Source: Thiotrichales bacterium
GTDB taxonomy: Bacteria; Pseudomonadota; Gammaproteobacteria; Francisellales; CACEW01
Assembly (NCBI GenBank): GCA_947478175.1
Contig: CANJUQ010000008.1
Span: 4,761-68,760 of the forward strand
Direction: 5' to 3'
Length of the DNA: 64,000 nt
The notes below the pieces were generated by a model. It was not told the DNA's origin. It made no database searches and was given only the letters and a program-made list of their open reading frames with translations. How positions within the stretch are numbered: the first letter of the stretch is position 1; each line of letters opens with the position of its first letter. Shown here in pieces: positions 6,105 to 59,766 of the stretch. Both the position numbers and the translations under genes were made by a program.

Positions 6105-6400
6105 TTTTTTCGCTAGTTCTGCAAATTCTTCTACCAAATGGGTTTTACTGACTTGGCGTGCCCCACGGATAATCAATGGCTTTCGGTCACGAGAAACAGA
6201 CCATTTTTGAAGAAATTCCAGGAGCTTTCTTTTCATATTCAATCCAGATTTGGCCAAAACAGCCGTCTATTTCAACCATTAATTGGCTAAAAATAGGACA
6301 CTATGCACGCCGAATACAAAATTCGCCCACACCCTTCCATTCATGGATAATCCCGCCTTTTTTAATCGCTCTTTTAAATAAATTTTTGGAAAGATTCCCC

Positions 6401-9139
6401 ATGACTGACATAACTAATAAGCCCTTAATCTTGATCGACGGATCGTCTTATCTATTTCGCGCTTTCTATGCTCTGCCTAATTTAACCAACGCTACAGGCC
6501 AGCCCACGGGCGCTATTTTGGGCGTGATTAATATGCTCAAAAGTTTATTAACCCAATATGACCCCGAATACATCGCCGTTGTATTTGATACCAAGGGCCC
6601 TAATTTCAGACATCGGCTTTATCCAGACTACAAAGCCAATAGATCCGCAATGCCTGAAGATCTTGCAAGTCAGATAGAACCTATTTTTGAATTTATCGAT
6701 GCCCTAGGTTTGGTTTTAATTAAACAAATGGGTATTGAGGCTGATGATCTCATCGCGACTTTGGCTCATACCGATTTTGCTGAGCATCATGAAATCTTGA
6801 TAGCCACGGGCGATAAAGATTTAGCCCAGCTGGTTAATTCAAAAATATCTTTGATAGACACCATGAAAAACGTCCGACTAGATATCCCTGGCGTCAAAGA
6901 AAAATTCGGCGTCACACCCGAGCAAATCATTGATTACTTAGCCTTGATGGGCGACACCTCCGATAATATTCCTGGTATTCCCGGCGTAGGACCCAAGACA
7001 GCCATCAAATGGATTTCAGAATATTCATCTTTAGATTTGATTATTCAGAACGCGGACAAGATCTCCGGCAAAGTCGGTGAGAATCTCAGAGCTAATCTTT
7101 CCCAGCTAGAACTCGCAAGAAAACTAGTGACCGTCGATTCTCATGTACCTCTAGAATTTGCTGGGGAAAATTTTACCTGGGAAAAATTGCTTAAAAGACC
7201 TGAAGATCAAAATAAATTAGTGACCCTGTGTGAAAAATATGGGTTTAAAACCTGGTTAAAAAATTTAGGGCATGAACCCGGGCGAACACAAGGTTCGCCC
7301 CTACAGGACAATATTCCGGCAAATAATTCAGGCCTCTATGAAACCATTTTGACGCTGGACCAATGGAACCATTGGCAAGAAAAAATTAGCCAATCTACAG
7401 CTCTAGCGATTGATACGGAGACCACCGGACTAGATCCCTTAGAAGATCGCCTCGTCGGCGTATCTTTTTGTGTAGAACCTCACAAAGCTGCCTATTTACC
7501 CCTAGGTCATGATTTACTCGAAGCACCTGACCAACTTTCCATAGATCAAATTCTCCCAGGCTTAAAAAAAATATGCGAAAACCCAAAGCTAGAAAAAATT
7601 GGGCACCATTTAAAATTTGACTGGCAAGTGCTAGCCCAACACGGGATTATTTTTCAGGACCCTTTATTTGATAGCCTGTTAGCGTCCTATGTTTTAGAAG
7701 CTGGCCAAACAAGACATAACTTAGAAACTCTGGCCTTACGCCATCTCAACTTAAAAACAATTTCTTATGAAAGCATCACTGGCAAAGGCGTCAAACAGTT
7801 AACTTTCAATCAAGTCCCCCTAGATCAAGCGACCCAATATTCTGCTGAAGATGCCGATATTACTTTTCAGCTCTATCAAAAATTTAAAAAAACTTTGCAT
7901 GAAAATCCCACGCTCGAAAAATTATTTCGCGAAGAAGAACTTCCTATGCTCAAAGTTTTGGCCCGTATGGAATTACATGGGGTTTTATTAGATGTCCCAG
8001 CTTTACAAAAACAATCTCAAGCACTGGGAAAAACTATTTTAGAAATCGAAAACAATGTCCAAGCTCAACTGGGCATGCATTTTAATCTCAGCTCACCCAA
8101 ACAATTACAGACGGTCTTATTTGAAAAACTTCAGCTTAAACCCGTCAAAAAAACAGCAACAGGTCAGGCATCGACTGACGAAGAAGTTTTGCAAATCTTG
8201 GCTGAGCAACATGAGATTCCAAAATTATTATTAGAACATCGTCATCTTTCTAAACTCAAGACAACTTATACAGATAAGCTCCCACTCATGGTCAACCCCA
8301 AAACCAACCGGGTTCACACGCGATATCATCAAGCCTTCGTTGTCACAGGAAGATTGTCTTCGTCGGATCCCAACTTACAAAATATCCCTATTAAATCCCC
8401 ACAAGGCCGTCAAATTCGCCAAGCGTTTATTGCCCCACCGGGCTCTGTGATTTTGTCTGCAGATTATTCTCAAATAGAACTGCGCATCATGGCCCATTTG
8501 TCTCAAGACCTCAGACTGATTCAAGCCTTTAAAAATGGTGAAGATATTCATCAAGCCACCGCAGCTGAAGTCTTTGGCGTGGAAAATCCCTCTGATGTCA
8601 CTTCTGAACAAAGACGCCGCGCTAAAGCCGTTAATTTTGGATTGATCTATGGCATGAGTGCCTTTGGCTTAGCTAAGCAATTAGGCATCGAAAGATCTCT
8701 CGCTCAACATTACATTGAAACTTATTTTGCAAGATACCCAGGGGTAAAAAAATACATGGAAGAAACCCGAGAACAAGCAAAATCTTTGGGCTATGTCGAA
8801 ACGATTTGGGGCAGAAGATTAGCCTTGCCAGACATCCATTCTAAAAACGCTGTCATGCGACAAGGGGCTGAACGAGCCGCTATCAATGCCCCCATGCAAG
8901 GCTCAGCGGCTGATATTATTAAACGCGCCATGATTCAAATAGATCAAGTCATTGAGACCCAAAAACTTCCCATGGCCATGACATTACAAGTGCACGATGA
9001 ATTAGTTTTTGAGGTTCAAGAACAATCGATTCAACCCATGACCGCATTAATTCGCCACCTTATGACATCGTCCTCATTACTCTCCGTTCCACTCGAAATC
9101 AGTATCAATACGGGGGCCCATTGGGATGAAGCTCATTAA
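6401..9139 (+). CDS. polA: DNA polymerase I
   Basis: Contains a 5' nuclease domain (LILIDGSSYLFRAFYA), a 3'-5' exonuclease domain (DTETTGLD) and polymerase motifs (DYSQIELR, QVHDEL). Start chosen at ATG 6401. The track ORF begins at 6176. Confidence 0.95.
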   Translation: MTDITNKPLILIDGSSYLFRAFYALPNLTNATGQPTGAILGVINMLKSLLTQYDPEYIAVVFDTKGPNFRHRLYPDYKANRSAMPEDLASQIEPIFEFIDALGLVLIKQMGIEADDLIATLAHTDFAEHHEILIATGDKDLAQLVNSKISLIDTMKNVRLDIPGVKEKFGVTPEQIIDYLALMGDTSDNIPGIPGVGPKTAIKWISEYSSLDLIIQNADKISGKVGENLRANLSQLELARKLVTVDSHVPLEFAGENFTWEKLLKRPEDQNKLVTLCEKYGFKTWLKNLGHEPGRTQGSPLQDNIPANNSGLYETILTLDQWNHWQEKISQSTALAIDTETTGLDPLEDRLVGVSFCVEPHKAAYLPLGHDLLEAPDQLSIDQILPGLKKICENPKLEKIGHHLKFDWQVLAQHGIIFQDPLFDSLLASYVLEAGQTRHNLETLALRHLNLKTISYESITGKGVKQLTFNQVPLDQATQYSAEDADITFQLYQKFKKTLHENPTLEKLFREEELPMLKVLARMELHGVLLDVPALQKQSQALGKTILEIENNVQAQLGMHFNLSSPKQLQTVLFEKLQLKPVKKTATGQASTDEEVLQILAEQHEIPKLLLEHRHLSKLKTTYTDKLPLMVNPKTNRVHTRYHQAFVVTGRLSSSDPNLQNIPIKSPQGRQIRQAFIAPPGSVILSADYSQIELRIMAHLSQDLRLIQAFKNGEDIHQATAAEVFGVENPSDVTSEQRRRAKAVNFGLIYGMSAFGLAKQLGIERSLAQHYIETYFARYPGVKKYMEETREQAKSLGYVETIWGRRLALPDIHSKNAVMRQGAERAAINAPMQGSAADIIKRAMIQIDQVIETQKLPMAMTLQVHDELVFEVQEQSIQPMTALIRHLMTSSSLLSVPLEISINTGAHWDEAH
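7280..7307 (+). repeat. REP-like hairpin (family A) inside polA
   Basis: GGGCGAAC-acaag-GTTCGCCC-CTACAGG. Translated in frame as GRTQGSPLQ. Confidence 0.75.
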
Positions 9140-16896: not shown

Positions 16897-16923
16897 GGGC
16901 AGCCCGCTGGCTGCCCCTACAGA
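16897..16923 (+). repeat. REP-like hairpin (family A) overlapping the hemF stop codon
   Basis: GGGCAGCC-cgct-GGCTGCCC-CTACAG. The hemF stop TAG is the complement of CTA at 16917-16919. Confidence 0.75.
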
Positions 16924-17840
16924 CGCCATTCTCTTGGCTTCAAAAATTTTTCGTATAACTCGGCTTCAGGACTGCCAATCTCTGGATGCCAGTTATATTT
17001 AAAACTCACCTCAGGCGGCAGGGACATCAAAATAGATTCTGTCCGTCCTCCCGATTGCAAGCCAAACAAAGTCCCCCGATCGTAAATCAAATTAAATTCG
17101 ACATAGCGACCTCGGCGATATCTCTGAAAATTAATTTCTCGATCGCCATAAGACCTATCTTTTCGACGAGCCACAATTTTTTCATAAGCCTGGATATATC
17201 CTGCCGTAATGCTCTGGAGCATTTCTAAACTTTTGTCTAATGGCAGCTGATTAAAATCATCAAAAAATAAACCGCCAATCCCACGGGGTTCTTTGCGATG
17301 TTTTAAATAAAAATACTCATCGCAGTCTTTTTTAAATTTTGGATATAACTCTTCTCCAAAAGATCTCACCGATTCATAAGCGATCTGGTGCCAGTCTCGA
17401 CAATCTTCTTCAAAGCCATAATACGGCGTTAAATCAAATCCACCGCCCACCCAGCCGACAGGTTTCTCGCCTGGTTTCTCTGCTTGGAAATATCGAATAT
17501 TAAAATGCGACGTTGGGACATACGGATTTTTAGGATGAATCACGACAGAAACTCCCATCGCCTGAAACGATCTTCCCACTAATTCAGGCCGATGTGCGGT
17601 TGCACTGGGTGGCAAAGCATTTCCAAAGACATGTGAAAAATTGACACCGGCTTGATCAAACACAGGGCCTTTTTTTAAAACACAAGTTCGACCACCACCG
17701 CCTTCAGATCGAGTCCATTCGTCTAGTTCAAATTTTTGTCCGTCTGCCTGATCTGCTTGATCTGCCTGACGCTCAACCATGGTGATAATATTTTTTTGGA
17801 CGGTTAATAAAATATTTTTAATAGCACTTAAATCTTGCAT
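16917..17840 (-). CDS. hemF: oxygen-dependent coproporphyrinogen-III oxidase
   Basis: [11 protein letters not shown]...GVNFSHV...[11 protein letters not shown]...[10 protein letters not shown] are HemF motifs. Start at ATG 17840, preceded by GGGAGA. Confidence 0.92.
17744..17770. repeat. 9-bp tandem repeat x3 in hemF (CTGCCTGAT CTGCTTGAT CTGCCTGAC)
   Basis: Read directly. Encodes QADQADQAD. Confidence 0.8.
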
Positions 17841-17864
17841 GCCTAATCTCCCTTTATCGATCAA

Positions 17865-17892
17865 GGGCGGACACGCGGGTCCGCCCCTACAA
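17865..17892 (+). repeat. REP-like hairpin (family A) in the ftsY-hemF spacer
   Basis: GGGCGGAC-acgcgg-GTCCGCCC-CTACAA. Confidence 0.8.
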
Positions 17893-23511: not shown

Positions 23512-23538
23512 GGGCGAATACAAGATTCGCCCCTACAA
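23512..23538 (+). repeat. REP-like hairpin (family A)
   Basis: GGGCGAAT-acaag-ATTCGCCC-CTACAA, in the convergent spacer before minE. Confidence 0.75.
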
Positions 23539-33789: not shown

Positions 33790-35913
33790 TTACAATACTG
33801 ATGGGTACACACCTGAAGCTGATACTGGGCTAACTGGTGCTGGTACTGGTGTTGAACTTCTTCTGTCTGGAGGAATGCCTAAGCCTTCTTCGATGTTCGT
33901 TCCATCTTGAAGTTCGAAATACTCATCACCTGATGGCGTGCGGAATGTAGTGCTGCCAGAGAGCACTCCCGATGCTGCACGGTGTTGCTCTTGAGGTACA
34001 ACGCCTACACCGCCGTATTGGCCTCCGTTTCCGAAAGATTGGAGTCTATGCCGACGATTGAAACATGCGGCTATTCTCGTACAAGGCTTAGATTCTTGCG
34101 GAAGATCAGTGCTTTGATAATTAGCTCGGAACCAAAGTGCTAAACACAAACTTCCTGCAACGGCATTTCCAACAATACCCCCTATCGCGACGCCATAAGG
34201 ACTGTGCATTACCTTGACGCCCAGCTCATAAGAAAGAAGGAGTCCGACCAGCCCCATTCCAAACAGGCTGGCGAACATGGGATTAAGGGTTACTTTAGTT
34301 AACCCCTGATACGCACTCGCCGCCCCGTAACGAAGACCATCGAAGACCTGTCCTACAACCACTAAACTCATAATGGGCAGCAACCAATCATGAACAAAAG
34401 GACTGCTCAAGGCTTCAGCGCCTAAAAATAATTGAGCCACTGGGTTAGCAATAAAAGGCGTGATGCCACACCAAGCAACTGCCCAGATCAACGAAAGCAT
34501 CATGCTGATGTTCCCCAGACGATACGCAGCAGAAAAATCTTTAGCCCCTACCATAGTTCCTATTAATTGAACCCCGGCATTCCCAAAACTCTGCGTCACG
34601 GTAAAAACCAAATTACTCACTGTACTCACAGCACTTGCGACTGTGACAGCGTCTTTGTTAATCCAACTATAAAAACCGGTACCAAAAAAAGCAGAAGACC
34701 ATTCAACGCCTAAGCGTCCAATCAAAGGAAGGCCTGTGCATAAAAACTCTTTCATCATGGAACCTGGAGGGAGTTTGTAACTTAAATCTTCCCGCTCCTT
34801 GGAAATTAAAAATTGACGAAGCTCATCAACCTCTGAAGAGGACAACATCAGTGTTTTAAAATCAGCGATGGGGAGTACGTTATTCCCTTCTTGTACGTCA
34901 ACATGAATGCTACTCACTCCCATGTTCACTGGATTCACTGGGCTCTCTGAGTCCACTTCCTGCTCCATTATCTCGGAAAAAATGCTTTTTAGGCTCTTTG
35001 TTTTTAAATCCTGTTGTGATTCCCTCAGAAAGTCCTGCAAGGCCGAAAAATCCCTTGATTCAAATTTTGAAAATGGGAATTTTAAAAATTCACTCCTTAA
35101 TTTACGACTTTTAGCGTCTTCAAGTTTAAATCGAAAAAGACCTGAGAGTTTTATTTCCCCAACATTTAAGTCCTTCCCAGAGACTTTTAAAACGGGTGGG
35201 GTTTTCTTAAATGCAATAAGCAGACTAAAAGCAATCGCGTTAAACCAAATACGAACTGCCCCTGCAATCGCTAACCCTTCAAGGCCTAGCTCAGGGAGGC
35301 CCATTTTGCCCATGCTCAAACCATAACTAAAAAACCACACCAAAGGCACGCTGCTAAGATTAAGCGCCGTCACCCAACCCCTTTGGTTAAACAAATTCAA
35401 ATAAGGCCGAACTACTGCCCCATAAGCAAAAGCAGGCACACTGACAAGGTACCAACGCAAAAATTTTTGAGTCATTGAAGTAATGAGCTTATTTTCATGA
35501 AAAATATTTTCCAGGGCAAATCCTGAAAAATAAAAAGCTGCCACGGTGATGGCAGCAGAAACAAAGGCGTAATAAAGTCCTTGCCGCCCCATACGAAAAA
35601 CGGCCTCTCGGGCCGTTTTCTTATCTTTTTCTGCTTGGGCCGCATGGATGGCCCCTAGCTTCTCGCCCATCAGGCCGTATAAGGCATTCATCGGCGCTGA
35701 CAAAGCAGTCTGCGATAACTTATAAGTCATCACCCACTGATTGGCCGTTAACTCGTCCGGTCCCAAATGAGCCATATAGATCTGAGTTATTATGTCAGTC
35801 GCTGTTGACGCCAACATGCCCGCTACAATAGGCATTGCAGTCTTGATAACTCCACAGGTTTCCCCCCATCTGGAACTTTGTAAAACGGTTTGAGTAACGC
35901 TAGCCCCTGACAT
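33790..35913 (-). CDS. MATE/MOP-superfamily-like polytopic membrane protein with central insertion and C-terminal tail (paralog 1)
   Basis: 12-TM layout. The N-terminal pattern IKTAMPIVAGMLASTATDIITQIYMAHLGPDELTANQ resembles MATE transporters. AGGAGA lies before the ATG. Confidence 0.68.
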   Translation of the reverse strand: MSGASVTQTVLQSSRWGETCGVIKTAMPIVAGMLASTATDIITQIYMAHLGPDELTANQWVMTYKLSQTALSAPMNALYGLMGEKLGAIHAAQAEKDKKTAREAVFRMGRQGLYYAFVSAAITVAAFYFSGFALENIFHENKLITSMTQKFLRWYLVSVPAFAYGAVVRPYLNLFNQRGWVTALNLSSVPLVWFFSYGLSMGKMGLPELGLEGLAIAGAVRIWFNAIAFSLLIAFKKTPPVLKVSGKDLNVGEIKLSGLFRFKLEDAKSRKLRSEFLKFPFSKFESRDFSALQDFLRESQQDLKTKSLKSIFSEIMEQEVDSESPVNPVNMGVSSIHVDVQEGNNVLPIADFKTLMLSSSEVDELRQFLISKEREDLSYKLPPGSMMKEFLCTGLPLIGRLGVEWSSAFFGTGFYSWINKDAVTVASAVSTVSNLVFTVTQSFGNAGVQLIGTMVGAKDFSAAYRLGNISMMLSLIWAVAWCGITPFIANPVAQLFLGAEALSSPFVHDWLLPIMSLVVVGQVFDGLRYGAASAYQGLTKVTLNPMFASLFGMGLVGLLLSYELGVKVMHSPYGVAIGGIVGNAVAGSLCLALWFRANYQSTDLPQESKPCTRIAACFNRRHRLQSFGNGGQYGGVGVVPQEQHRAASGVLSGSTTFRTPSGDEYFELQDGTNIEEGLGIPPDRRSSTPVPAPVSPVSASGVYPSVL

Positions 35914-36428: not shown

Positions 36429-38198
36429 CTAACAGACACTGTGAACTGTTACAGGGCTAACTGGCACGGGTGTTGAACTGCTTCTGTTTGCAGGAGGAGT
36501 GCTCAAGCCTTCTTCGATGCTCGTTCCATCTTGAAGTTTGAAATAATCCTTACCTGATGGCGTGCGGAATGTAGTGCTGCCAGAGAGCACCCCCGATGCC
36601 TCACGATGTTCTTCTGAAGGTACAACGCCTTCGCCTACACCGCCGTATTGGCCTCCGTTTCCGAAAGGTTGGAGCCTATGCCGACGATTGAAACATGCGG
36701 CTATTTTCGTACAAGGCTTAGATTCTTGCGGAAGATCAGTGCTTTGATAATTAGCTCGGAACCAAATGCCCAAACATAAACTCCCCGCAATAAAATTCCC
36801 CAAGATGGCTCCCGTCGCAACACCCTCAGGACTCTTCATCGCCTTCACACCCAAGCCATAAGAAAGACTCAGCCCAACCAAGCCCATTCCAAATAAACTA
36901 GAAAGCATGGGCTGAATAGTCTTTTTTGTGAGGCCTTGATAAGCACTCGCGGCAGCGTAGCGAAGCCCATCAAAGACTTGTGCCACAACCGTCAAGCTCA
37001 TGATGGATGGCAACCAAGCGAGTACCAAAGGATTATTTACAGCGTCAGCCCCTAAAAATAACTTAGACACTGGATTAGCAATAAAAGGCGTGATAACACA
37101 CCAAAGCGTCGCCCAAATAAGCGGAAGAATAATACTGATATTCCCCAGACGATAAGCTGCTTCAAAATTTTTGGCCCCCACCATGGTTCCCAATATTTGA
37201 ACTCCAGCATTCCCTAAACTCTGTGTCACGGTAAAGATCAAGTTACTGAAAATGCTGACAGCACTCGCCACGGTCAGAGCCTCTGAGCTAATCAAATTAT
37301 AAAAAGCACTTCCAAAAAAAGCAGAGGACCACTCCACCCCCAACCGTACACTTAAAGGCAGCCCTGTTTGTAACAGCTCTTTCATCATGTCCCAGGAGCC
37401 TGCTAATTTAAATTTAAACAGCCCTGAAAGCTTTATTTCTCCGATGTTTAGCTCTTTCCCAGAAACAGTTAAAACCGCTGGTGTTGTTTTACATAAAATA
37501 AGCGCTGTAGAAGCAATCGCGTTAAACCAAATACGACTAATCGCTGCCAACGCAAGTCCTTCAATGCCTAGTTTAGGAAACCCAAACCCACCCAGCCCGA
37601 ACCCATAACCCAAGAGGACCATCAAAGGCACACTGGCATAATTAAAACTTGAGACCCAGCTTCTTTGGTTCAACACGCATAGATAAGGCCTGACCGCCGA
37701 ACCGTAACTAAAGGCCAAAACACTCGGGAGATACCAACGTAAAAATCTTTGAGCCATTCCAGTAATAATGGCGTTTTCATGAAATAGCCTTCCCAACACA
37801 AACCCTGAAAAGTAGAAAGCTGTTGCCACGATCGAGGCAGAAGCTAAGGCGTAATACAGGCCTTGTTGCCCCATAAGAAAAACGGCCTCGCGGGCCGTTT
37901 GTCTATCTTCTTCTGTGGTGGCTGCATGAATGGCCCCCAATTTATTACCTAACAAGCCATATAAGGCGTTCATAGGCGCTGATAGCGCCGTCTGGAATAG
38001 TTTGTAAGTCATGGCCCACTGATTGGCGGTTAATTCATCTTTACCCAATCGCGCCATAAAAATCTGAGTCGCCATGTCAGCCGCTGTGGATGCCAACATG
38101 CTTGCCATAATGGGTCCTGCCGTTTTTATCACCTCACAAACTTCTGTTTTCTGTGCCTTGATTTTCAAGATGGTTTGAGTAAAACAAGTCCCTGACAT
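36429..38198 (-). CDS. MATE/MOP-superfamily-like polytopic membrane protein with C-terminal tail (paralog 2)
   Basis: Collinear with 33790-35913. Start placed at ATG 38198 (MSGTCFTQ), aligned with the paralog 1 start and preceded by AGGAGA. Confidence 0.68.
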   Translation of the reverse strand: MSGTCFTQTILKIKAQKTEVCEVIKTAGPIMASMLASTAADMATQIFMARLGKDELTANQWAMTYKLFQTALSAPMNALYGLLGNKLGAIHAATTEEDRQTAREAVFLMGQQGLYYALASASIVATAFYFSGFVLGRLFHENAIITGMAQRFLRWYLPSVLAFSYGSAVRPYLCVLNQRSWVSSFNYASVPLMVLLGYGFGLGGFGFPKLGIEGLALAAISRIWFNAIASTALILCKTTPAVLTVSGKELNIGEIKLSGLFKFKLAGSWDMMKELLQTGLPLSVRLGVEWSSAFFGSAFYNLISSEALTVASAVSIFSNLIFTVTQSLGNAGVQILGTMVGAKNFEAAYRLGNISIILPLIWATLWCVITPFIANPVSKLFLGADAVNNPLVLAWLPSIMSLTVVAQVFDGLRYAAASAYQGLTKKTIQPMLSSLFGMGLVGLSLSYGLGVKAMKSPEGVATGAILGNFIAGSLCLGIWFRANYQSTDLPQESKPCTKIAACFNRRHRLQPFGNGGQYGGVGEGVVPSEEHREASGVLSGSTTFRTPSGKDYFKLQDGTSIEEGLSTPPANRSSSTPVPVSPVTVHSVC

Positions 38199-38311
38199 AT
38201 GACTTTTCTCCTGTGATTTCTTAGCCAATTAAAAAATACAGCGCAAAGTACTATAAAAATATTAAAGAAAGAACGCTAAAAAATAACAGCTAAAAAAATA
38301 ATAAATTTAAA

Positions 38312-42989: not shown

Positions 42990-45563
42990 ATGAACACAGA
43001 ACACCTCGAAGTCTTAGTCATAACGACTGACCACACCCCCATGATGAAGCAATATTTATCTATCAAAGCCAAGCACCCTGATTTGCTGTTGTTTTACCGC
43101 ATGGGTGACTTCTATGAAATGTTCTTTGAAGACGCCATCGAAGGTGCCAAATTATTAGATATCACGCTCACACAAAGAGGCCAATCAGCCGGCCAGCCCA
43201 TTCCGATGGCGGGAATCCCTGCGCATTCTGTCGAAAGTTATTTGGCCAAATTAATTATCCAAGGTAAATCCGTTGCTATTTGTGAACAAATCGGCGACCC
43301 CAGCACGAGCAAAGGCCCTGTCGCTCGCGAAGTCACTCGAATTGTCACGCCTGGCACAGTCACAGAAGAACATCTACTTCAAGAAAAACAAGATAACTGG
43401 CTCGTCGCTTTATCTAGAAATCCTAAAAAACTTTCTATCGCCGCTGTTAATTTATCAGGCGGTGAATTAGTCCTATATCCCATTAATTCACTCACCGAAC
43501 AGAATGCTTTATTGGCTCAATTAAAACCTGCTGAAATTTTAATGCCCGACTCAGAAGATTTAACTCAAGAACAAGAATCAGGGGTGACTCGGCGGTCTGA
43601 TTTAGATTTTGATAGTAAAGCGGGTCAGCGGCTTTTAGAAAAACAACTCGGCGTCTCGACTTTAATTTCTTTTGGAATGGACCCTGCCAAGCTCACTCAT
43701 GTATTAGGTTTGGGGGCTTTAGGCGCTTTATTAAATTATTTAAACGAAACCCAAAAAATAGCGTTACCCCATTTAAAACGCTTTAGGCTTCAACAGTCTG
43801 ATCAAATTTTAATGCTCGACGAATCCACGCGACGCAATCTAGAAATCGACCAAAATCTCCGCGGCGGTAAAACACACACGCTTTTATCTGTTCTAGATCG
43901 CTGCCAGACCCCGATGGGTTCTAGGTTACTGCGCCGATGGCTCAATGAGCCTTCAAGAGAAATCAAAATAATTTTGGCCAGGCAACAGGCCATCACAGAA
44001 CTCAAAGAAAAATTAATCTACCCAGAACTGACGCCGCTATTACACAGCATTGGCGATGCTGAAAGAATTTTAACTCGTGTGGCTTTACTCTCGGCCCGAC
44101 CTCAAGATTTATTAAAACTAAAATCTTCTCTTTTTGTTTTACCTAATCTTTTAAAAATTTTAAAAAATTTAAACTCTCAAAAAATTCAAATTCTTTCTGC
44201 TCAGATCCAATTATTTCCAGACTTACATCAGCTCTTAGATTTATCTATAGATCCCAATGCCCCGACGATTTTGCGGGATGGCGGTGTCATTAGACCTGGC
44301 TTTGATGCTGTCTTAGACGAACTCAAAAGCTTGGGAGAAAACGCCAGTCAATATTTACTAGATCTCGAAATTCGAGAAAAAGCTCGAACTAAAATTCCGA
44401 CACTCAAAGTGGGTTATAACCGGGTTCATGGGTTTTATATCGAAATTTCTAAAGGCCAGTCAGACAAAGCACCGTTAGATTATCAAAGACGCCAGACTCT
44501 CAAGAATGCTGAGAGATATATCACTCCAGAGTTAAAAACGTTGGAAGATAAAGTCTTATCTGCCCAAGAAAGAGCGCTCGCTCGAGAGAAGCAGCTCTAT
44601 GAAGAAATTTTGATCAAAATAAATCAATCTCTTGAATCTTTACAAAAAACTTTTGAAGCCATTTGTGAATTAGATATTTTGCAAAATTGGGCTGAACGCG
44701 CTGAAAAATTAAAGCTTACTTGCCCCCAGCTCACCCCAGAATCTGTCTTGAAAATTTCTAAAGGCCGTCATCTTGTGGTCGAGTCTGTTTTAAAAGAACC
44801 CTTTATTCCCAATGACACTGCGTTAGATTCAAACACCCGAATGTTACTCATCACTGGGCCAAACATGGGCGGAAAATCAACTTATATGCGACAAGTCGCT
44901 TTGATTACTTTATTGGCTTACACCGGCTGCTTTGTCCCAGCCCAATCTGCCCTAATTGGACCGATCGATCGAATCTTTACCCGCATTGGCGCGAGTGATG
45001 ACTTGGCTTCTAATCGATCGACTTTCATGGTCGAAATGAGCGAAACAGCCCAAATATTGCACCATGCGACAGATCGCTCTTTAGTTTTATTAGACGAAAT
45101 TGGCCGAGGAACTAGTACGTTCGATGGTTTATCTCTGGCGTTTGCGACAGCTGAATATTTAAGTTCTCAGGTCAAACCTTTGACTTTATTTGCGACTCAT
45201 TATTTTGAATTAACCACGTTAGATAAAAACCCAGGCATTCAAAATATCCATGTCAGTGCGAGAGAAATCCAAGGCCAGTTAGTTTTACTGCATGAAATTA
45301 AACCTGGCCCTGCCAGTCAGAGCTATGGTATTGCAGTCGCAAAACTAGCGGGTTTACCTAACTCAGTGATTCAGACGGCTAAGAAATATTTGAAAGACTT
45401 AGAGCAAAAAAGCTTGTCGCTTCACCATCCTCAGCAAAGTTTAAATTTTGATGAAGATATTTCAAAAGATACATTGTCAAAATGGTTAGAAAATTTAGAT
45501 CTAGAGGCTTTGACGCCTAAGCAAGCCTTGGATTTGCTGTATGCGCTCAAATCTAAAAAATAA
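42990..45563 (+). CDS. mutS: DNA mismatch repair protein MutS
   Basis: Has [20 protein letters not shown], Walker [10 protein letters not shown] and DEIGRGTST motifs. Confidence 0.95.
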
Positions 45564-47011: not shown

Positions 47012-47049
47012 AAAAATAAAATAAAAAAATTAAATAAGGACAAACCCTC

Positions 47050-47457: not shown

Positions 47458-47466
47458 AACATCTGG

Positions 47467-48171: not shown

Positions 48172-48518
48172 GTAACCCCGACAAATAACACCCGATTAAC
48201 TTCATCGATATGATGTTTAAACGGCGGGTAAGTAATTAACTCGTAGGCGTTAATATCTACTTTGTAAGGCAAAGAACTTTCATTAAATAAAGTCCAAATT
48301 CGATCCATTATTTTTGTATCTAATGGATCATCAGCATTGCTATAAAGAACTAAATCAATATCTGAATTATCCCGATATTTCCCTGTTGCCCGAGAACCAA
48401 ACAAAGCTACACGATTAATCTGGTGAGCCCAGGGTTTTAAAATTTTTTTAATTATTTCTAAATGGCCATGGCTCAATCCATGATTAATTGGCTGATTAGC
48501 ATTAGTAAAATTAGACAT
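48168..48518 (-). CDS. mntA: MNT-domain nucleotidyltransferase (MntA-type antitoxin)
   Basis: Has the minimal NTase signature FGSRATGKYRDNSDIDLVL. Start at ATG 48518, overlapping the hepT stop by 8 nt. Confidence 0.8.
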   Translation of the reverse strand: MSNFTNANQPINHGLSHGHLEIIKKILKPWAHQINRVALFGSRATGKYRDNSDIDLVLYSNADDPLDTKIMDRIWTLFNESSLPYKVDINAYELITYPPFKHHIDEVNRVLFVGVT

Positions 48519-48924
48519 CTTGCGAACCTGCCAAAGTCTCATAAAGATTTTTTAAGCAAGCCAAATACTGTTGTTCAATATCTGTGATAACTGATTCAAA
48601 CTGTTTCAAATCATAGGTATGACTCATCTTGTTTCGATCATCTAGTGCTTGCATCCAAATGTCGCCCTGATGGATTAATCGACTGGCAATAGCTTCTTTA
48701 ATCACAGCTCTGGGTGTGATTTGCTCAAATACAACATTCTGGCTTTCTAAATAATCTTTCATGGTCTTCCAAGCCAGCTCAATGCTGTATTCAAAACGTT
48801 GAATCACTCCTTCTTTTTCTAGTGTACTGAGACCACGTTCTTTTTTTTGATCTATGGATTCTTGGAGTAAAAAGTAAGCCCGTTTGAAATTATCAAAACG
48901 ATATTGCCAGCGTTTCTTTTCCAT
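48511..48924 (-). CDS. hepT: HEPN-domain protein, HI0074 family (HepT-type toxin)
   Basis: RWQYRFDNFKRAY...IQRFEYSIELAWKTMKDYL...DRNKMSHTY contains the Rx4H HEPN motif. Confidence 0.8.
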   Translation of the reverse strand: MEKKRWQYRFDNFKRAYFLLQESIDQKKERGLSTLEKEGVIQRFEYSIELAWKTMKDYLESQNVVFEQITPRAVIKEAIASRLIHQGDIWMQALDDRNKMSHTYDLKQFESVITDIEQQYLACLKNLYETLAGSQDV

Positions 48925-49104
48925 GATTTTTACTCTTAACCCCTATTATTTTTGGCCGCGAATAATGCACGCTAAGCTCTATTCAGGCAAATAGAGCAAG
49001 ACCATAAATCCATACCCATTTAAGCTAACTCGTAATTGACATCCCCCCTCTCAAAATATCTACTTCCCGCCCGATTTTTGACTGACTTCCTGGCTTAGAT
49101 AAAC

Positions 49105-52038
49105 ATGACTATTGCTGACTATCTCTCTGCCCTTCGCCATTCTAATTTCTCTGGCGAAATTCGAACGGATTTCTCGACTCGACTGGCTTTATCGACTGAC
49201 AACAGTATTTATCAAAGAATTCCTGAAGCCGTTTTATTTCCCAAGACTCATCAAGATATTGTCGAAATTTTTAAACTGGCCGGAAAACCAGAATTTAAAA
49301 AAATCAGATTTTCTCCCCGAGCTGGCGGCACTGGGACTGACGGTCAATCTTTAACGTCAGATATTTTGATCGACTGTTCGAAATATTTGCGAGAAATCTT
49401 AGAAATCAATCTCGAAGCCGGTTATGCCCGAGTCCAAGCAGGCGTGGTCTTAGATCAATTAAATAATATCCTTAAACCCCATGGCGTATTTTTTGCCCCT
49501 CAAGTTTCACCGTCTAACAGAGCTTGCATTGGCGGGATGTTTAATACGGATGGATGCGGCCTAGGGTCTGCTAAATATGGCCGAACGAGTGAGCATGTTT
49601 TAGGGGTCACCGCCGTTTTGATTAATGGCGAAGTTTTAAATACTCAAGCCAGAACTTTGCCTTTATCTAATCACCAAAATCTCTCGCCCACAGAATTAAA
49701 TCTCAGTGAGAAAATTTTAACCTGGCTCTCTGAGCATCAAAATTTAATTCAAGAAAAAGCCCTCAAAATGCCCAGATTTCTCACGGGCTACAACTTATTG
49801 CACCCACTTCAAAATAATCAATTAGACCTCACAAGATTGCTTTCAGGTTCTGAAGGGACATTGGCCATGATCACAGAACTGACGGTCAAACTTACTCCCT
49901 TGCCTAAACATAAAGCTTTACTAGTTATTAAATATTTAGATTTTGATCGGGCTTTAAGACATGGCGCTTCACTGTTAATTCACCAACCCGAAGCGACAGA
50001 AACCATTGATGACAAGATTATTAATCTCGCCCGAAAAGACGAAGTTTTTCTGAAAGTAAAACCCATGTTTGAATATGACGGCCCGGATGAAACCACGCAG
50101 GCGATTAATTTAATTGAATTCACTCATGAGCATCCCCAGGCTTTGTTAGACAAAATTCAAGAAATTAAAACTCTTTTAGCTCAAGACACTCAAATCAATG
50201 GGATTTTTATAACTCAAGACCCCAAAGAAATTTCAGCTTGGTGGGAACTTCGTAAAAAAAGCGTGGGCCTTTTAGCTAATTTACCTGGCAAACGTCAGCC
50301 CGTTCCCTTTGTCGAAGATACGGCCGTCGATCCTTCTGTGTTGCCAGAATTTATTCGGGATTTTCGAGCTGTCTTAGATCAGGACAATTTGGTCTATGGC
50401 ATGTTTGGGCACATAGATACTGGCTGTATTCATGTCAGACCGGCGTTAGATATGACCGATCCTGACGATGCTAAAAAAGTTAAAATTATTTCAGACAAAA
50501 TTCAAAAACTCGTTAAACACTATGGCGGCTTACTTTGGGCTGAACACGGTGCTGGATTTCGTAGTCATTATATTCCTGAATACTTTGGGCCAGAGCTCAC
50601 TCAGCTCATGGTAAAAATCAAAACATTATTTGATCCAGAGAACCAACTCAACCCAGGCAAAATTATTTCGTCAGATCCCAGTATTCCTATTGTCAGACCC
50701 GGCGAAGAATTAAGAGCAACACGAGAATCTCAAGTACCCAGTGATGTAAGACATCAATTTGAGAAAGCCTTCAAGTGCAATGGCAATGCCATCTGTATGA
50801 ACGTCATGCCAGACATCGCGATTTGCCCGTCTTATAAAATCACACGAGATCGAGTGCATTCACCCAAAGGTCGGGCTGTTTTAATGCGAGAATATCTCCG
50901 ACAAGAATCATTAGGTGAAATAGATTTATCTTTTGCTGAAGAAGTTAAAAAATCCATGGATGGTTGTTTAGGCTGTAAATCTTGTGTTTCTGGCTGTCCT
51001 GTCAATGTCGATGTACCGAGTTTTAAAAGTGAATTTTATGCACGGTATTACCGATCTAAACTCAGGTCTTTACGAGATATTTTGACGGCGAATTTTGAGC
51101 GATTGACGCAGATCAAGGCATGGTTTGTAAACATTGGTGGTAGGTGCTTATCGAGGGCGGACACGCAGGTCCGCCCCTACAGGAAAAATCAAAAAATTAG
51201 GTTCGCTACAAGAATAACTGGCCTCGTCGATCTCCCGAAAATTTCTAAAAATCTTTCGCTTTTAAAACAAATCCCCAAAGCCAATTCTAAAAATATTTCC
51301 CAGGCCCAAAAACCTATTTTATTAATGGGCGATGTTCTGACCCGCTTTCATCATCCTGAATTATTACTCGACGCTGCCAAGTTAATAAAAAAACTAGGCT
51401 ACACGCCCCTACTATTACCATTTATTCAAAACGGAAAATCTTTTCACGCCCTGGGATATCTTAAAAAATTCGAATATTTAGCTAAAAAAAATCAGCAATT
51501 TTTAAAAAAATATTTTGATCAAAATATTCCCATCTTGGGCATCGAACCGGCTTTGACGCTCGCTTTTCGAGATGAATATAAAAATATTTTAGAAAAAAAT
51601 AATAATAAAATAGGGTTTTCAGTCCAATTGATTTCGGAATGGTTAGAAAAACTGGATCTTTCTGGTTTAAAGGGCGGACACGCAGGTCCGCCCCTACGAA
51701 TGCCCTCAAAGTCTTATGCTTTTATTTCCCACTGTTCTGAAAAATCCCTCGTGCCCTACTCTGCAAAACACTGGCAAAAAATATTCACACAAATGGGATT
51801 AGATTTGATTTTGCTCGAAGCAGGTTGCTGTGGCATGGCGGGTGTCTATGGCCATCAGATAGAACATCAAGAAAACTCTAAAAATCTCTATGAACTTTCC
51901 TGGGAAACTCATGTCAAAAATTATGGGGAAAACTTACTAGCCACGGGCCATTCCTGTCGATCTCAAATAAAAAGATTGGGGGGGGGAAATATCAAACACC
52001 CTCTATCTGTTTTGACGTCTTATTGGCTTAATGATTAA
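49105..52038 (+). CDS. FAD-linked oxidase fused to Fe-S/CCG-domain oxidoreductase (YdiJ-like)
   Basis: 977 aa with an N-terminal FAD-binding PCMH-type domain (GGTGTDGQS). The middle region has the 4Fe-4S motif CLGCKSCVSGCP and the C-terminus has Cys-rich CCG-type repeats. Confidence 0.82.
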   Translation: MTIADYLSALRHSNFSGEIRTDFSTRLALSTDNSIYQRIPEAVLFPKTHQDIVEIFKLAGKPEFKKIRFSPRAGGTGTDGQSLTSDILIDCSKYLREILEINLEAGYARVQAGVVLDQLNNILKPHGVFFAPQVSPSNRACIGGMFNTDGCGLGSAKYGRTSEHVLGVTAVLINGEVLNTQARTLPLSNHQNLSPTELNLSEKILTWLSEHQNLIQEKALKMPRFLTGYNLLHPLQNNQLDLTRLLSGSEGTLAMITELTVKLTPLPKHKALLVIKYLDFDRALRHGASLLIHQPEATETIDDKIINLARKDEVFLKVKPMFEYDGPDETTQAINLIEFTHEHPQALLDKIQEIKTLLAQDTQINGIFITQDPKEISAWWELRKKSVGLLANLPGKRQPVPFVEDTAVDPSVLPEFIRDFRAVLDQDNLVYGMFGHIDTGCIHVRPALDMTDPDDAKKVKIISDKIQKLVKHYGGLLWAEHGAGFRSHYIPEYFGPELTQLMVKIKTLFDPENQLNPGKIISSDPSIPIVRPGEELRATRESQVPSDVRHQFEKAFKCNGNAICMNVMPDIAICPSYKITRDRVHSPKGRAVLMREYLRQESLGEIDLSFAEEVKKSMDGCLGCKSCVSGCPVNVDVPSFKSEFYARYYRSKLRSLRDILTANFERLTQIKAWFVNIGGRCLSRADTQVRPYRKNQKIRFATRITGLVDLPKISKNLSLLKQIPKANSKNISQAQKPILLMGDVLTRFHHPELLLDAAKLIKKLGYTPLLLPFIQNGKSFHALGYLKKFEYLAKKNQQFLKKYFDQNIPILGIEPALTLAFRDEYKNILEKNNNKIGFSVQLISEWLEKLDLSGLKGGHAGPPLRMPSKSYAFISHCSEKSLVPYSAKHWQKIFTQMGLDLILLEAGCCGMAGVYGHQIEHQENSKNLYELSWETHVKNYGENLLATGHSCRSQIKRLGGGNIKHPLSVLTSYWLND
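51155..51183 (+). repeat. REP-like hairpin (family A) inside the YdiJ-like gene
   Basis: GGGCGGAC-acgcag-GTCCGCCC-CTACAGG. Translated as RADTQVRPYR. Confidence 0.8.
51672..51700 (+). repeat. REP-like hairpin (family A) inside the YdiJ-like gene
   Basis: The same 26-mer as at 51155. Translated in another frame as GGHAGPPLR. Confidence 0.8.
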
Positions 52039-52043
52039 TCAAT

Positions 52044-52979
52044 TTACAGCCCCATATCAGCTAAAAGCCAATTTAATAGCTGTTTGAATCTTTCACTGGG
52101 AACCCCTGTTCCCAGTATTTTATTTTCAAATTTTGTGACAGGCAGCAAACCAAAACTAGTCCCAATCATCATGACATCTTGAGCCTGTAATAAATCATCC
52201 ATCAAGATAGGCCTAACGGCTGTTTTCCAGCCTTGTTGTTTAGCTAGATTAAATAATCTTCCCATCGTCGTTCCCTGCAAAATAAAATCAGGCATCGGAC
52301 AAGTTAAGATTCCTGCTGAATCAATAATAATAAAATTCTCGGTCGCACTTTCTGTCAAATAATTTTGATCATCTAGACCCAAGACATAATCAAGACCCCG
52401 GTCTATGGCTTCTTTTCGCATCAAAACATTGGGTAAATAATTACAAGATTTCATGCGGGCTAGCCAAGAAGGTTTTCCAGGAATTTTACTAATTCCAATA
52501 TTCACTCCCTTCTCATATTTCTCAGCAGGCGTTGGATTAAATTTGGTCACGGCCAAATAAAACTGGGGCCCCGTGGGTTCATAAGGGTTGACAGAAAAAT
52601 TACCGGGACCGCGAGATAAATAGGCCCGAATCATGGTGTCTGGGTGATTCGCAATTTTTAAAGTTTCCAAAATAATTTCTTTCATACCTGCTTGGCTCAT
52701 AGGGGGTTCTAAAGAAATAGTTTTGGCTGAACGCCAGAATCTTTCTAAGTGCGCGTCGAATAAATACACCTGATGATTAATCGCTCTTAAAGTCTCAAAG
52801 ACCCCATCACCTCGTGTGACCAAATGGTCATCCATGGGAACAATCATCCAATGGGGATCCGTCGTGATGCCACCCAGCCAAGTGGAATAGCAGGCAAGAT
52901 AATCTTTAAAGAAGGGGTTTTGTTGGGATTTGATGTTTTGAATAATCTGGGATTCGTTTAATAAAACTGGGGGATGCAT
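52044..52979 (-). CDS. class IV (fold type IV) aminotransferase family protein
   Basis: 311 aa with a branched-chain/D-amino-acid aminotransferase-like sequence pattern (RGDGVFET...H..R...S). Confidence 0.75.
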   Translation of the reverse strand: MHPPVLLNESQIIQNIKSQQNPFFKDYLACYSTWLGGITTDPHWMIVPMDDHLVTRGDGVFETLRAINHQVYLFDAHLERFWRSAKTISLEPPMSQAGMKEIILETLKIANHPDTMIRAYLSRGPGNFSVNPYEPTGPQFYLAVTKFNPTPAEKYEKGVNIGISKIPGKPSWLARMKSCNYLPNVLMRKEAIDRGLDYVLGLDDQNYLTESATENFIIIDSAGILTCPMPDFILQGTTMGRLFNLAKQQGWKTAVRPILMDDLLQAQDVMMIGTSFGLLPVTKFENKILGTGVPSERFKQLLNWLLADMGL

Positions 52980-53264
52980 AAGGGGCCTTATTTTATTTTT
53001 GTGTTTTAGCAGACAGCTTAATCAAGCTATTGCGCCATCAAAAACAGGTTAACTCCAGAAATATATTACTATTATGGAATTCATTCCATTTTAGTTTTAA
53101 GTAACCAGTTAATAAACATGGGATTTATAGATTAAATTTATGTGATGCTGGAATTACGAGTGTCCTCGCTAATCAATCTAATAAACCCCCAATACAATCT
53201 CGCGTATGAATTTTCCAATCACTATAATGGCCGCCTTTTTCCCATCTAGAGTTTCTCAAAAATC

Positions 53265-54017: not shown

Positions 54018-54027
54018 CTTCGATTTT

Positions 54028-55866: not shown

Positions 55867-55990
55867 GGGGATTCTCAAAAATAAATAAAATAAAAATCAG
55901 CGGGAGAGTATACCCATCAAGAATCATTTTGCTGGACGCTTTAACATGCAATGCCCCGCTGTTTTTTTAATTAATCTTTATGGAGTACTC

Positions 55991-58731: not shown

Positions 58732-59766
58732 TTAACCCATTAAATTCCCACTCTGCACCACTAAAGTTCCTAGTGGAGCCTTCTTAGCCAATGCCGATTC
58801 CAACATAGCCAATCGGATATAAGACTGACGGTCAGATAAATCTAATTTTCCACACATCCAGACCAAAGATTCGACTGTTTTTTCCAGGGTCATCTGGGGC
58901 TGATAATCAGGAGCTAGTTCTCTAAATTTTGCAAAATTAACTCGATAAGAACGCTTGTCTGGCATCGCTTTGGGGTTTATTTCTATTTTGATTTTTGGAA
59001 TTAATTTCGCACAAATTTCAGCCAAATCTTTAATCTGATAGTTCCAGTGATCCGATCCAATATTAATCACCAAATAATCTTCTTGAGCTTGATAATTCAG
59101 CGCCCAGAGCAGGCTTCTTGAAATATCTTTGACATGAATCAGCGGTCGAATGGGAGACCCGTCACTCATGACCCGAATGATTTTTTCAGAAAGCGCTGTG
59201 GCCACAAAATCATTTAAAACTAAATCTAATCTTAATCTCGGCGAAGCCCCACAAGCGGTCGAAAATCTCAAGGCCATGATTTTAAAATCTGGACTGGCCA
59301 GGTTTTTTAATTCCGCTTCCACGGCAGATTTAGACCGTGCGTAAGCTGTCAATGGATTCAAACTATCTAATTCTGTTTTAGCTAAATCCCCCCCAGCGCC
59401 ATAAAGCGAACAACTAGACGCAAAAATAAATTTTGGGACTCCGTGAGCTCGAGCCATCTGAGCAAGTTTGACACTAGCTTGATAATTCACTGCCTCTGTC
59501 AGCTGATCGAATCTCACGCCCATCGCATCGTTAGATAAAGCCGCTAAGTGAATCACCGCATCCATGCCGTTTAATAATTCATCTGGAAAATTCTGGATAT
59601 CGCCTCGGTATTGCCGAACTAAAAAATTCTCAGGACGTGGGCCGGTCAAGCATTCTTCGAAATAACCTGCATCAAAACCATATAATTCATAGCCACCTCT
59701 TGAAGCCAAATAAGGCACCAAGACTGATCCGATATAACCCATGTTTCCTGTGACTAGTATTTTCAT
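58732..59766 (-). CDS. NAD-dependent epimerase/dehydratase (extended SDR)
   Basis: Has the Rossmann motif VTGNMGYIGS and the catalytic YxxxK (YARSK). Confidence 0.85.
   Translation of the reverse strand: MKILVTGNMGYIGSVLVPYLASRGGYELYGFDAGYFEECLTGPRPENFLVRQYRGDIQNFPDELLNGMDAVIHLAALSNDAMGVRFDQLTEAVNYQASVKLAQMARAHGVPKFIFASSCSLYGAGGDLAKTELDSLNPLTAYARSKSAVEAELKNLASPDFKIMALRFSTACGASPRLRLDLVLNDFVATALSEKIIRVMSDGSPIRPLIHVKDISRSLLWALNYQAQEDYLVINIGSDHWNYQIKDLAEICAKLIPKIKIEINPKAMPDKRSYRVNFAKFRELAPDYQPQMTLEKTVESLVWMCGKLDLSDRQSYIRLAMLESALAKKAPLGTLVVQSGNLMG

Follow-up and report, generated by a model that had tools for sequence, protein, structure and literature searches.

Two in-frame copies of a GTAG-tagged REP palindrome in variable loops of one ydiJ-like gene

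How can one gene carry the same 26-nucleotide palindrome twice, in two different reading frames, and stay intact? The gene in question encodes a ydiJ-like FAD / Fe-S oxidoreductase of 977 amino acids (49105..52038, + strand) and lies in a 64,000-nucleotide stretch of a Thiotrichales bacterium contig (hereafter called the window). The initial annotation had reported an identical 26-mer twice, 517 bp apart, in this ORF. Exact matching confirms both sets of coordinates: GGGCGGACACGCAGGTCCGCCCCTAC occurs on the + strand at 51155-51180 and again at 51672-51697, with starts 517 bp apart. Across 100 dinucleotide-preserving shuffles, the mean number of matches to this 26-mer was 0. The first copy is read as AGG GCG GAC ACG CAG GTC CGC CCC TAC, giving RADTQVRPY (residues 684-692) and then R. 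The second is read in another frame, as aAG GGC GGA CAC GCA GGT CCG CCC CTA Cga, giving (K)GGHAGPPLR (residues 856-865). The translations first proposed, RADTQVRPYR and GGHAGPPLR, are thus reproduced, and the ORF runs through both copies with no internal stop. An A precedes each 26-mer, so that the identity common to both is 27 nucleotides (9 codons); alignment of the flanks reveals no similarity outside these 27 nucleotides. Read in the forward orientation, the element is free of stop codons in all three frames; in reverse orientation it supplies a TAG in one frame.

The answer begins with the reverse complement of the 26-mer, which consists of the tetranucleotide GTAG, an 8-bp GC stem and a 6-nucleotide loop. 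Read on the − strand, copy 1 (51155..51180) is GTAG followed by GGGCGGAC, the loop CTGCGT and GTCCGCCC, and copy 2 (51672..51697, also −) is identical to it. GTAG-tagged repetitive extragenic palindromes (REPs) have a GC-rich stem of 6-13 bp, a short loop and an unpaired GTAG, and their subfamilies differ by complementary changes in the stem (PMC3733652). The ydiJ 26-mers are copies of such a canonical GTAG-tagged REP, and their length falls within the 20-40 nucleotides or so that characterize these palindromes. This identity went unrecognized in the initial annotation, and it explains the finding.

The two ydiJ copies belong to a dispersed multi-copy family, with six copies in the 64-kb window where none is expected by chance. 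All six are in a single orientation, and none forms a dimer. Each has an unpaired GTAG foot, a perfect 8-bp stem and a loop of 4-6 nucleotides; the stems are GC-rich and start at the foot with three G-C pairs. The GTAG tetranucleotide adjoins the stem in 6/6 hairpins (GCCCCTAC on the + strand, GTAGGGGC on the − strand). There are four stem variants among the six copies, all compensatory: GGAC/GTCC, GAAC/GTTC, GAAT/ATTC and AGCC/GGCT. Across the window, the predicted hairpin energies span -12.6 to -22.2 kcal/mol, with RNA values of -17.3 and -18.2 kcal/mol for ydiJ copies 1 and 2.

With only six copies to judge by, three are intergenic and three lie inside ORFs (two in ydiJ, one in polA). The first intergenic copy, GTAGGGGCAGCCAGCGGGCTGCCC (16897..16920, −), provides with its GTAG the TAG stop of a coproporphyrinogen oxidase ORF (16917..17864, −). 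The second (17865..17890, −) has the same stem as the ydiJ copies and one loop mismatch, and sits in the gap that separates the coproporphyrinogen oxidase ORF from an ftsY-like one. The third, GTAGGGGCGAATCTTGTATTCGCCC (23512..23536, −), separates convergent ferredoxin-like and minE ORFs. The remaining copy, GTAGGGGCGAACCTTGTGTTCGCCC (7280..7304, −), is in frame in polA, where it is read in the third frame as GRTQGSPLQ and occupies the hypervariable linker that joins the 5'-nuclease domain to the 3'-5' exonuclease domain. The PolA protein itself is at most 57% identical to its named matches, the best being from an unclassified 'Gammaproteobacteria bacterium' metagenome-assembled genome, followed by Thiohalophilus, Piscirickettsia and Crenothrix. 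That half of the window copies (3/6) are intragenic is unusual for a family called 'extragenic'.

Other classes of repeat were considered and rejected. The copies are not the inverted doublets of a REPIN or BIME: they are six same-orientation singletons with no inverted partner in their flanks, and even the nearest pair, at 16897 and 17865, is 945 bp apart. Aligning 40 nucleotides on either side of all six copies revealed no longer composite element. Nor are they MITEs, as similarity stops at the 26-27-nucleotide unit and the flanks carry no duplication.

What kind of protein tolerates two such insertions? The ydiJ-like ORF has the Pfam domains FAD_binding_4, FAD-oxidase_C and 4Fe-4S dicluster (PF01565, PF02913, PF13183), and its product is 42-46% identical over 99% of its length to proteins named D-2-hydroxyglutarate dehydrogenase YdiJ. 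More than 5,000 homologues were found. An alignment of 65 sequences has >120 invariant columns, and the window protein keeps the residue in every one. By homology the host is a predicted YdiJ-type FAD/Fe-S D-2-hydroxyglutarate dehydrogenase, including the C-terminal Cys-rich region.

Both insertions fall where the alignment of the protein family varies in length. At site 1, which is located between domains, the window YdiJ has a net gain of 10 residues relative to all 64 aligned homologues. At site 2 the alignment columns have occupancies of 0.12-0.53. The suggestion that both segments are lineage-specific insertions is borne out by this alignment, which places them in variable regions and not at conserved residues of homologues. 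The AlphaFold (AF2) model of the window protein (pLDDT 89.4, pTM 0.90) has only three segments with pLDDT <50, residues 75-78, 687-694 and 858-860, and the latter two overlap the REP-coded residues. Residues 687-694 are modelled as coil, and 858-860 lie within a coil spanning 856-869. As to whether the segments are surface loops, as the initial annotation asked, the model places both in low-confidence coil loops. With each ydiJ copy, about nine codons are added to a loop of variable length that the model predicts to be disordered, and the inserted unit could be 26, 27 or 30 nucleotides. The positions tolerated in ydiJ are, on this model, disordered loops.

Together the intragenic copies use all three frames. 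Two enzymes accommodate one 26-nucleotide element at three loop or linker positions, each in a frame of its own, and neither enzyme is broken. Because the three intragenic copies encode three different peptides in three frames, constraint acts on the DNA and not on the peptide. For annotation, RADTQVRPY, GGHAGPPLR, GRTQGSPLQ and VGADLCVRP (the last from a sister lineage described below) are best treated as translated REP DNA rather than protein motifs.

Most probably, the ydiJ copies are GTAG REPs that were inserted by a REP-type mechanism and have been kept as neutral passengers in permissive loops and linkers. We propose that the copies arrived by the single-strand mechanism put forward for REPs, in which a transposase of the REP-associated tyrosine (HUH/Y1) type, supplied in trans, would recognize the GTAG and hairpin on single-stranded DNA. 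Selection would then keep only those insertions that preserve the frame and land in permissive loops or linkers. The copies would be near-neutral passengers and not functional protein motifs, and their identity would reflect tight constraint on the family sequence as much as recent origin.

Evidence from other genomes is consistent with this proposal. More than 120 stretches from many phyla contain the same motif, metagenome-assembled genomes of Coxiellaceae among them. Two of these stretches (L052 and L019) have it in frame within genes matching the NCBIfam 'REP-associated tyrosine transposase' (E = 1.4e-14 and 3e-6, respectively); the two proteins have no Pfam match, and a PDB sequence search with them gave nothing meaningful. 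Double-foot variants of the form GTAG...CTAC are present in three more (L042, L077 and L078). For TnpA_REP, binding and cleavage of single-stranded REP depend on GTAG, and in vivo transposition has never been demonstrated for any REP (PMC8266576). REPs of the GTAG super-family typically flank a RAYT/TnpA_REP gene in the same genome. Searches by tblastn with E. coli RayT (from NC_000913.3) and the L052 protein found no RAYT gene in the 64-kb window, in the orthologous loci L122 and L124 or in the Coxiellaceae loci. Mobilization by a resident transposase is therefore an unproven proposal, and the ydiJ copies could be relics.

Related ydiJ genes have a history of their own at site 2. All of the closest orthologues (4-5) carry a GC-rich palindrome in this loop; these palindromes represent three or more unrelated families, and both orientations occur. 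In the sister lineage P0121/L122 the palindrome belongs to the same REP family in the opposite orientation (GTAGGGGCGGACCTGTGTGTCCGCCC, read as VGADLCVRP). L124, nearly identical to L122 in flanking gene sequence, has a different palindrome. These sequences point to independent insertion at one loop. In the protein alignment, the site-2 loop of distant YdiJ homologues only varies in length, and the site-1 insert has no counterpart in them. The collections searched contained no allele in which either ydiJ site was empty, and a metagenome scan for closer ydiJ relatives with empty sites or deletions returned only the known P0003 contig.

Might the site-2 loop and the polA linker be actively targeted landing pads, at which one palindrome attracts or is replaced by another? 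The nearly identical flanks with different site-2 elements in two lineages count toward this reading, which we nevertheless regard as rather doubtful. If it were true, hairpins would be directing the insertion or replacement of elements within coding DNA.

The passenger reading must also be weighed against a more recent exchange between the copies themselves, since two exact copies had been taken to suggest recent activity or gene conversion. Gene conversion or templated repair might have produced one copy with the other, or some third REP, as its source; alternatively, the two might stem from a very recent burst. The two ydiJ copies do agree at 27/27 nucleotides, and the other window copy with the same stem differs from them by one loop base. 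We drew an estimate of loop sharing from the 158 stem-matched copies, from other phyla, among the matches listed. The identical 26-mer accounts for 14 of these 158, which come from unrelated phyla, and the chance that two copies taken from the 158 listed share a loop is ~0.06. Given the tight constraint on the family and the presence of the same 26-mer in distant phyla, copy identity is weak evidence of recency. Moreover, flanks without homology leave conversion tracts unsupported, and the copies stand in different frames at unrelated loops, so that each site required its own insertion. A conversion or burst origin is improbable, and the suggestion in its original form is not supported.

The direct repeat had also been thought capable of mediating deletion of the segment between the copies. 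A direct repeat of 26-27 nucleotides could indeed, in principle, template slippage, but the deletion idea is supported only in part. As 517 is not a multiple of 3, the deletion product would run out of frame and end after residue 726, and a 517-bp deletion allele would be expected, from this sequence, to be null or truncated. No such variant was present in the metagenome scan or in the sole other assembly, a Logan assembly of run ERR3761215 (locus L001). The L001 gene has both copies and 0 nucleotide differences, and over 13.5 kb the locus matches the window at 100% identity. At first look, at 99.4% identity, it could have passed for a second strain. Base by base, however, identity is 100% up to 59235 and divergence is complete thereafter. 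L001 represents the same population and is no independent strain.

Could the hairpins instead be kept for a function in mRNA or DNA, such as pausing at domain boundaries, RNase protection or a gyrase, IHF or Pol I site? Roles in pausing and RNase protection, and with gyrase, IHF and Pol I, have been proposed for some E. coli REPs. At -17 to -18 kcal/mol the ydiJ RNA hairpins are predicted to be stable, both the polA copy and site 1 are found between domains, and the 4-5 closest orthologues all have a GC-rich palindrome in the site-2 loop. However, those palindromes belong to at least three unrelated families in both orientations, and distant homologues have a loop of variable length at site 2 and no match to the site-1 insert, as judged at the protein level only. 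Termination was rejected as a role, because no T-run follows either ydiJ hairpin (3' sequences CTACAGGAAAAATC and CTACGAATGCCCTC on the + strand, TCGATAAGC and TTTAAACC on the − strand) and they are therefore not intrinsic (Rho-independent) terminators. At the Rfam gathering threshold only 6S RNA was matched, and no family corresponds to the hairpins. We consider retention for such a function quite improbable.

Finally, it is extremely improbable that one or both copies are assembly artefacts, created when a repeat caused a misjoin or duplication during metagenome assembly: the window appears to come from a metagenome assembly and short GC-rich repeats can confuse assemblers, but Logan, a separate pipeline, gives the identical gene with both copies, the ORF is intact with protein colinear with homologues between and beyond the copies and a confident fold model, and the same element stands at site 2 in a sister lineage.

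How does this locus compare with known systems? The E. coli REP/BIME sequences and REPINs, as Bertels and Rainey are said to have described them in 2011, combine a GTAG foot with a hairpin, occur in high copy and were proposed to be mobilized by a RAYT on single-stranded DNA. The hairpin and GTAG foot are shared with the element described here, whereas E. coli REPs have bulged stems, form inverted doublets and are essentially extragenic; the window has no doublets. Rickettsia palindromic elements (RPEs) are selfish palindromic DNA residing in frame in Rickettsia genes, with the encoded peptide at surface-exposed or linker positions and protein function kept. Here the likeness is one of behaviour only, namely in-frame residence in loops. 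RPE-1 is ~100-150 bp long and unrelated in sequence, and an assignment to this type was rejected for a unit of only 26-27 nucleotides with a GTAG tag. The short RPE-4 and RPE-6 are members of the CGTC super-family (Di Nocera 2013, PMC3733652).

In the REPs of TnpA_Y1 subclass 2.4, GT[AG]G leads straight into a stem foot of three consecutive G-C pairs, and 'double-foot' GTAG...CTAC variants occur (PMC6006769). They too are found in frame within coding sequences, and even the transposase gene carries them (Quentin, Siguier, Chandler & Fichant 2018, BMC Genomics 19:475, PMC6006769). Our family resembles them in its foot of three G-C pairs, its double-foot variants and its copies inside transposase genes. 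In contrast, there is no tnpA_REP in the window, and the link is by element anatomy and other genomes only.

The closest precedent is that of Di Nocera, De Gregorio & Rocco 2013 (BMC Genomics 14:522), who read intragenic REPs as neutral inserts in flexible linkers and loops (PMC3733652). Their GTAG REPs are located between unidirectional or convergent ORFs, and also entirely within ORFs, including that of DNA polymerase I, with single elements twice in one ORF; GTAG also supplies TAG stops (PMC3733652). The anatomy, stem changes, siting, TAG stops, and intragenic and double insertion are all the same here. Intragenic GTAG REPs, double insertion, polA REPs and REP-supplied TAG stops are thus already published (Di Nocera 2013; Quentin 2018), and with the phenomenon, its reading and even double insertion per ORF in the literature, no new question is opened. 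There are differences: dimers predominate in most of the families of that study (PMC3733652), whereas the window has singletons in one orientation; half of the window copies are intragenic; and neither the host, an uncultured gammaproteobacterium, nor ydiJ is listed there. The ydiJ case is a new example, and a clean one, of selfish palindromic DNA inside essential or metabolic genes.

The 977-aa ydiJ-like ORF (49105..52038, + strand) is uninterrupted and holds two exact + strand copies of the 26-mer GGGCGGACACGCAGGTCCGCCCCTAC, at 51155-51180 (site 1) and 51672-51697 (site 2). The initial annotation, which reported two identical 26-mers read in two frames of one intact gene, was correct on this point, and we confirm its coordinates and translations. 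Site 1 is read AGG GCG GAC ACG CAG GTC CGC CCC TAC (RADTQVRPY, aa 684-692), and site 2 aAG GGC GGA CAC GCA GGT CCG CCC CTA Cga ((K)GGHAGPPLR, aa 856-865). Because an A precedes each copy, the shared identity is 27 nt; aligned flanks show no similarity beyond it, and the 26-mer did not arise when the window was shuffled with its dinucleotides preserved. The host protein has FAD_binding_4, FAD-oxidase_C and 4Fe-4S dicluster domains and is 42-46% identical over its full length to proteins named D-2-hydroxyglutarate dehydrogenase YdiJ by their sources.

Judged by the anatomy of its sequence, the element is a GTAG-tagged repetitive extragenic palindrome (REP) in the sense of Di Nocera et al. 2013 (PMC3733652) and of Corneloup et al. 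2021 (PMC8266576). On the - strand the ydiJ copies read GTAG-GGGCGGAC-CTGCGT-GTCCGCCC: an unpaired GTAG foot, a perfect 8-bp stem whose first three pairs are G-C, and a 6-nt loop. No Rfam family matches this hairpin. Scanning the 64-kb window for GC-rich hairpins and for GCCCCTAC revealed six dispersed elements of this type, starting at 7280, 16897, 17865, 23512, 51155 and 51672. Their predicted hairpin energies range from -12.6 to -22.2 kcal/mol, and their stems differ by compensatory changes only (GGAC/GTCC, GAAC/GTTC, GAAT/ATTC, AGCC/GGCT).

Three of the six copies are intergenic and three lie in frame within genes, two in ydiJ and one in polA. The copy at 17865-17890, one loop base different from the 26-mer, lies between coproporphyrinogen oxidase and ftsY-like ORFs, and the copy at 23512 between convergent ferredoxin-like and minE ORFs. 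The third, at 16897-16920, is counted as intergenic; the coproporphyrinogen III oxidase ORF (16917..17864, - strand) takes its TAG stop from the GTAG of this copy, a role of GTAG REPs that has been described explicitly (Di Nocera et al. 2013, PMC3733652). The polA copy (7280-7304, in ORF 6176..9139, + strand) is translated as GRTQGSPLQ. Together the three intragenic copies occupy all three reading frames, and the REP as oriented here has no stop codon in any frame (reversed, it has TAG in one). It is therefore the DNA that is conserved and not the encoded peptide.

In all six copies GTAG lies on the - strand. Since the + strand shows negative GC skew across the entire window, this is the G-rich strand in every case. 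Such a placement would fit elements that, like IS200/IS605, insert into the lagging-strand template, and we take it as only a hint. The shared orientation has a two-sided binomial p of about 0.03, from six copies only, and two other loci (L122, which holds a ydiJ orthologue, and L042) have copies in both orientations.

Where do the insertions fall in the protein? In alignments of 15 and 65 YdiJ sequences, no conserved residues align to either site. Site 1 falls after the Fe-S domain and before the C-terminal Cys-rich region, in a variable stretch where the window protein has a net gain of 10 residues relative to all 64 other aligned sequences; site 2 falls in columns with an occupancy of 0.12-0.53. 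An AlphaFold2 model derived from the larger of these alignments has high overall confidence (mean pLDDT 89.4, pTM 0.90). Its pLDDT drops below 50 only at residues 75-78, 687-694 and 858-860, the last two of which overlap REP-coded residues, and both sites are coil. The expectation that these segments are lineage-specific insertions is thus borne out by alignment, both sites being variable, and the structure prediction that the initial annotation had proposed as a check favours surface or disordered loops. Taken together, alignment and model identify the ydiJ copies as lineage-specific insertions in loops.

In DNA polymerase I, the polA copy occupies the hypervariable linker that joins the 5'-nuclease domain to the 3'-5' exonuclease domain. 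The same linker contains 'SPxxGE' peptides in two sister-lineage homologues (P0123, P0124) and 'GRDAINRVST' in one from Crenothrix (P0235), which look like other translated palindromes. As listed, the polA ORF has an N-terminal extension of ~80 aa that is missing from homologues, so its start codon is probably further downstream.

The closest ydiJ orthologues (P0002, P0003 and P0121) are only 62-66% identical to the window protein, and for this reason homologue collections and a metagenome scan yielded no empty-site allele of either site. The site-2 loop is occupied independently in the sister lineage: P0121, from locus L122, has GTAGGGGCGGACCTGTGTGTCCGCCC there, read VGADLCVRP, an oppositely oriented member of the window's REP family. 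P0003, from locus L124, falls into one 90%-identity cluster with P0121 and has nearly identical flanking gene sequence. Its loop region (L124 12480-12640) nevertheless holds a CCCTCTC...GAGAGGG palindrome, unlike the GTAG REP of L122 (12500-12680). Two further orthologue loci have a longer, nested version of the L124 palindrome (L127) and a ATTCCCGC/GCGGGAAT hairpin (L128). On sequence comparison, these differences amount to element turnover at one codon-level site. Counting the window, this loop holds a GC-rich palindrome in all five closest orthologues. At least three families are represented, and the loop is thus a recurrent landing place. Palindromes in coding loops across orthologues also imply that these genomes tolerate them repeatedly.

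In P0002, a second palindrome family, CTCTCCC...GGGAGAG, is translated in frame as 'SPLxGE' at three or four places. This family (CTCTCCC-N5-GGGAGAG) is found in the window at 15165-15183 and 38895-38913, with ~55 nt of similar flanks. One of these copies is translated in frame as VSPLAGE within murG, in the stretch separating its two glycosyltransferase-28 domains; the other is located at the 5' end of a FUSC-like ORF or upstream of it.

The window has other structured features. A 424-bp intergenic element (42467-42890), upstream of ORF 42990..45563, has 105-nt terminal inverted repeats that are 99% complementary, with hairpin CCCTCTCCAATATTGGAGAGGG in each arm, and looks like a MITE or foldback element. 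Near-identical hairpins AACGGCCTCTCGGGCCGTT and AACGGCCTCGCGGGCCGTT, with similar flanks, lie at 35599-35617 and 37881-37899 inside neighbouring long - strand ORFs (33790..35913 and 36429..38228), and may reflect a paralogous gene pair or another repeat family. A full-length 6S (SsrS) RNA gene is at 32164-32340, + strand (Rfam RF00013, 82.5 bits).

The element is widespread. Searching a collection of species-representative genomes for GGGCGGAC-N6-GTCCGCCCCTAC returned at least 120 stretches, with hosts among the matches listed in Acidobacteriota, Firmicutes, Bacteroidota, Chloroflexota, Cyanobacteria, Desulfobacterota, Candidate Phyla Radiation bacteria and one Coxiellaceae metagenome-assembled genome. 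In one Nitrospirota genome (L052 2415-3059, +) and one Clostridium genome (L019 6867-7286, -) the GTAGGGGCGGAC...GTCCGCCC motif is in frame (VGADLCVRP and VGADASVRP) inside a gene matching the NCBIfam 'REP-associated tyrosine transposase' (RAYT; E = 1.4e-14 and 3e-6, respectively), between the HUH and Tyr motifs. 'Double-foot' GTAG...CTAC variants, described by Quentin et al. 2018 (PMC6006769), are present in loci L042, L077 and L078. In other genomes, these two observations tie elements of this type to RAYT-like enzymes; neither the 64-kb window nor the orthologous loci have a RAYT gene. We propose that the copies probably inserted by the chemistry of REP-associated Y1 transposases, which would act in trans on single-stranded DNA and depend on GTAG and the hairpin, and that selection would then keep only those insertions that preserve the frame and fall at permissive positions. 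A role as a functional mRNA or DNA structure is less likely.

Identity of the two ydiJ copies had been taken to suggest recent activity or gene conversion. It is weak evidence for either, because the exact loop, and hence the identical 26-mer, occurs in 14 of 158 stem-matched copies among the matches listed, and two copies drawn from those 158 would share a loop with a chance of about 0.06. We consider conversion between the copies less likely than transposase-mediated insertion. It was also suggested that the direct repeat could mediate deletion. Indeed, 26-27 nt repeated at 517 bp could support slippage or short-homology deletion; no variant was seen in the L001 assembly (Logan, run ERR3761215), and the metagenome scan yielded no further relatives. 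As 517 is not divisible by three, such a deletion would shift the frame: the computed product reads ...RADTQVRPY-ECPQSL..., ends after residue 726 and loses the C-terminal Cys-rich region, in which many residues are invariant. Rather than cleanly excising a loop, the event would leave a truncated or null allele.

Assembly error is also less likely: L001 contains the same ydiJ gene and both copies with 0 nucleotide differences. It is 100% identical to the window over 45758-59235 and then diverges completely, so it represents the same population assembled twice, not an independent strain. From L001 position 13478 (window 59236) its last ~490 bases are unrelated; the break, inside ORF 58732..59766 (-), reflects either a region that varies between strains or a branch point of the assembly.

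How do these elements compare with known REPs? With three G-C pairs at the stem foot, the window element matches the 'canonical long REP' associated with TnpA_Y1 subclass 2.4, and the L052 and L019 arrangement matches exactly another feature of that subclass, a REP in frame within the transposase gene (Quentin et al. 2018, PMC6006769). Published work already covers GTAG REPs inside genes, the insertion of a single element twice into one ORF, REPs in the gene for DNA polymerase I and in further genes of replication and repair, and the view that flexible linkers or loops tolerate such inserts (Di Nocera et al. 2013, PMC3733652). What we add is modest: the host, an uncultured gammaproteobacterium with a PolA that shares no more than 57% identity with any named match; the host gene ydiJ; the structure-model match of inserts with disordered loops; and recurrent palindrome turnover at one ydiJ loop.
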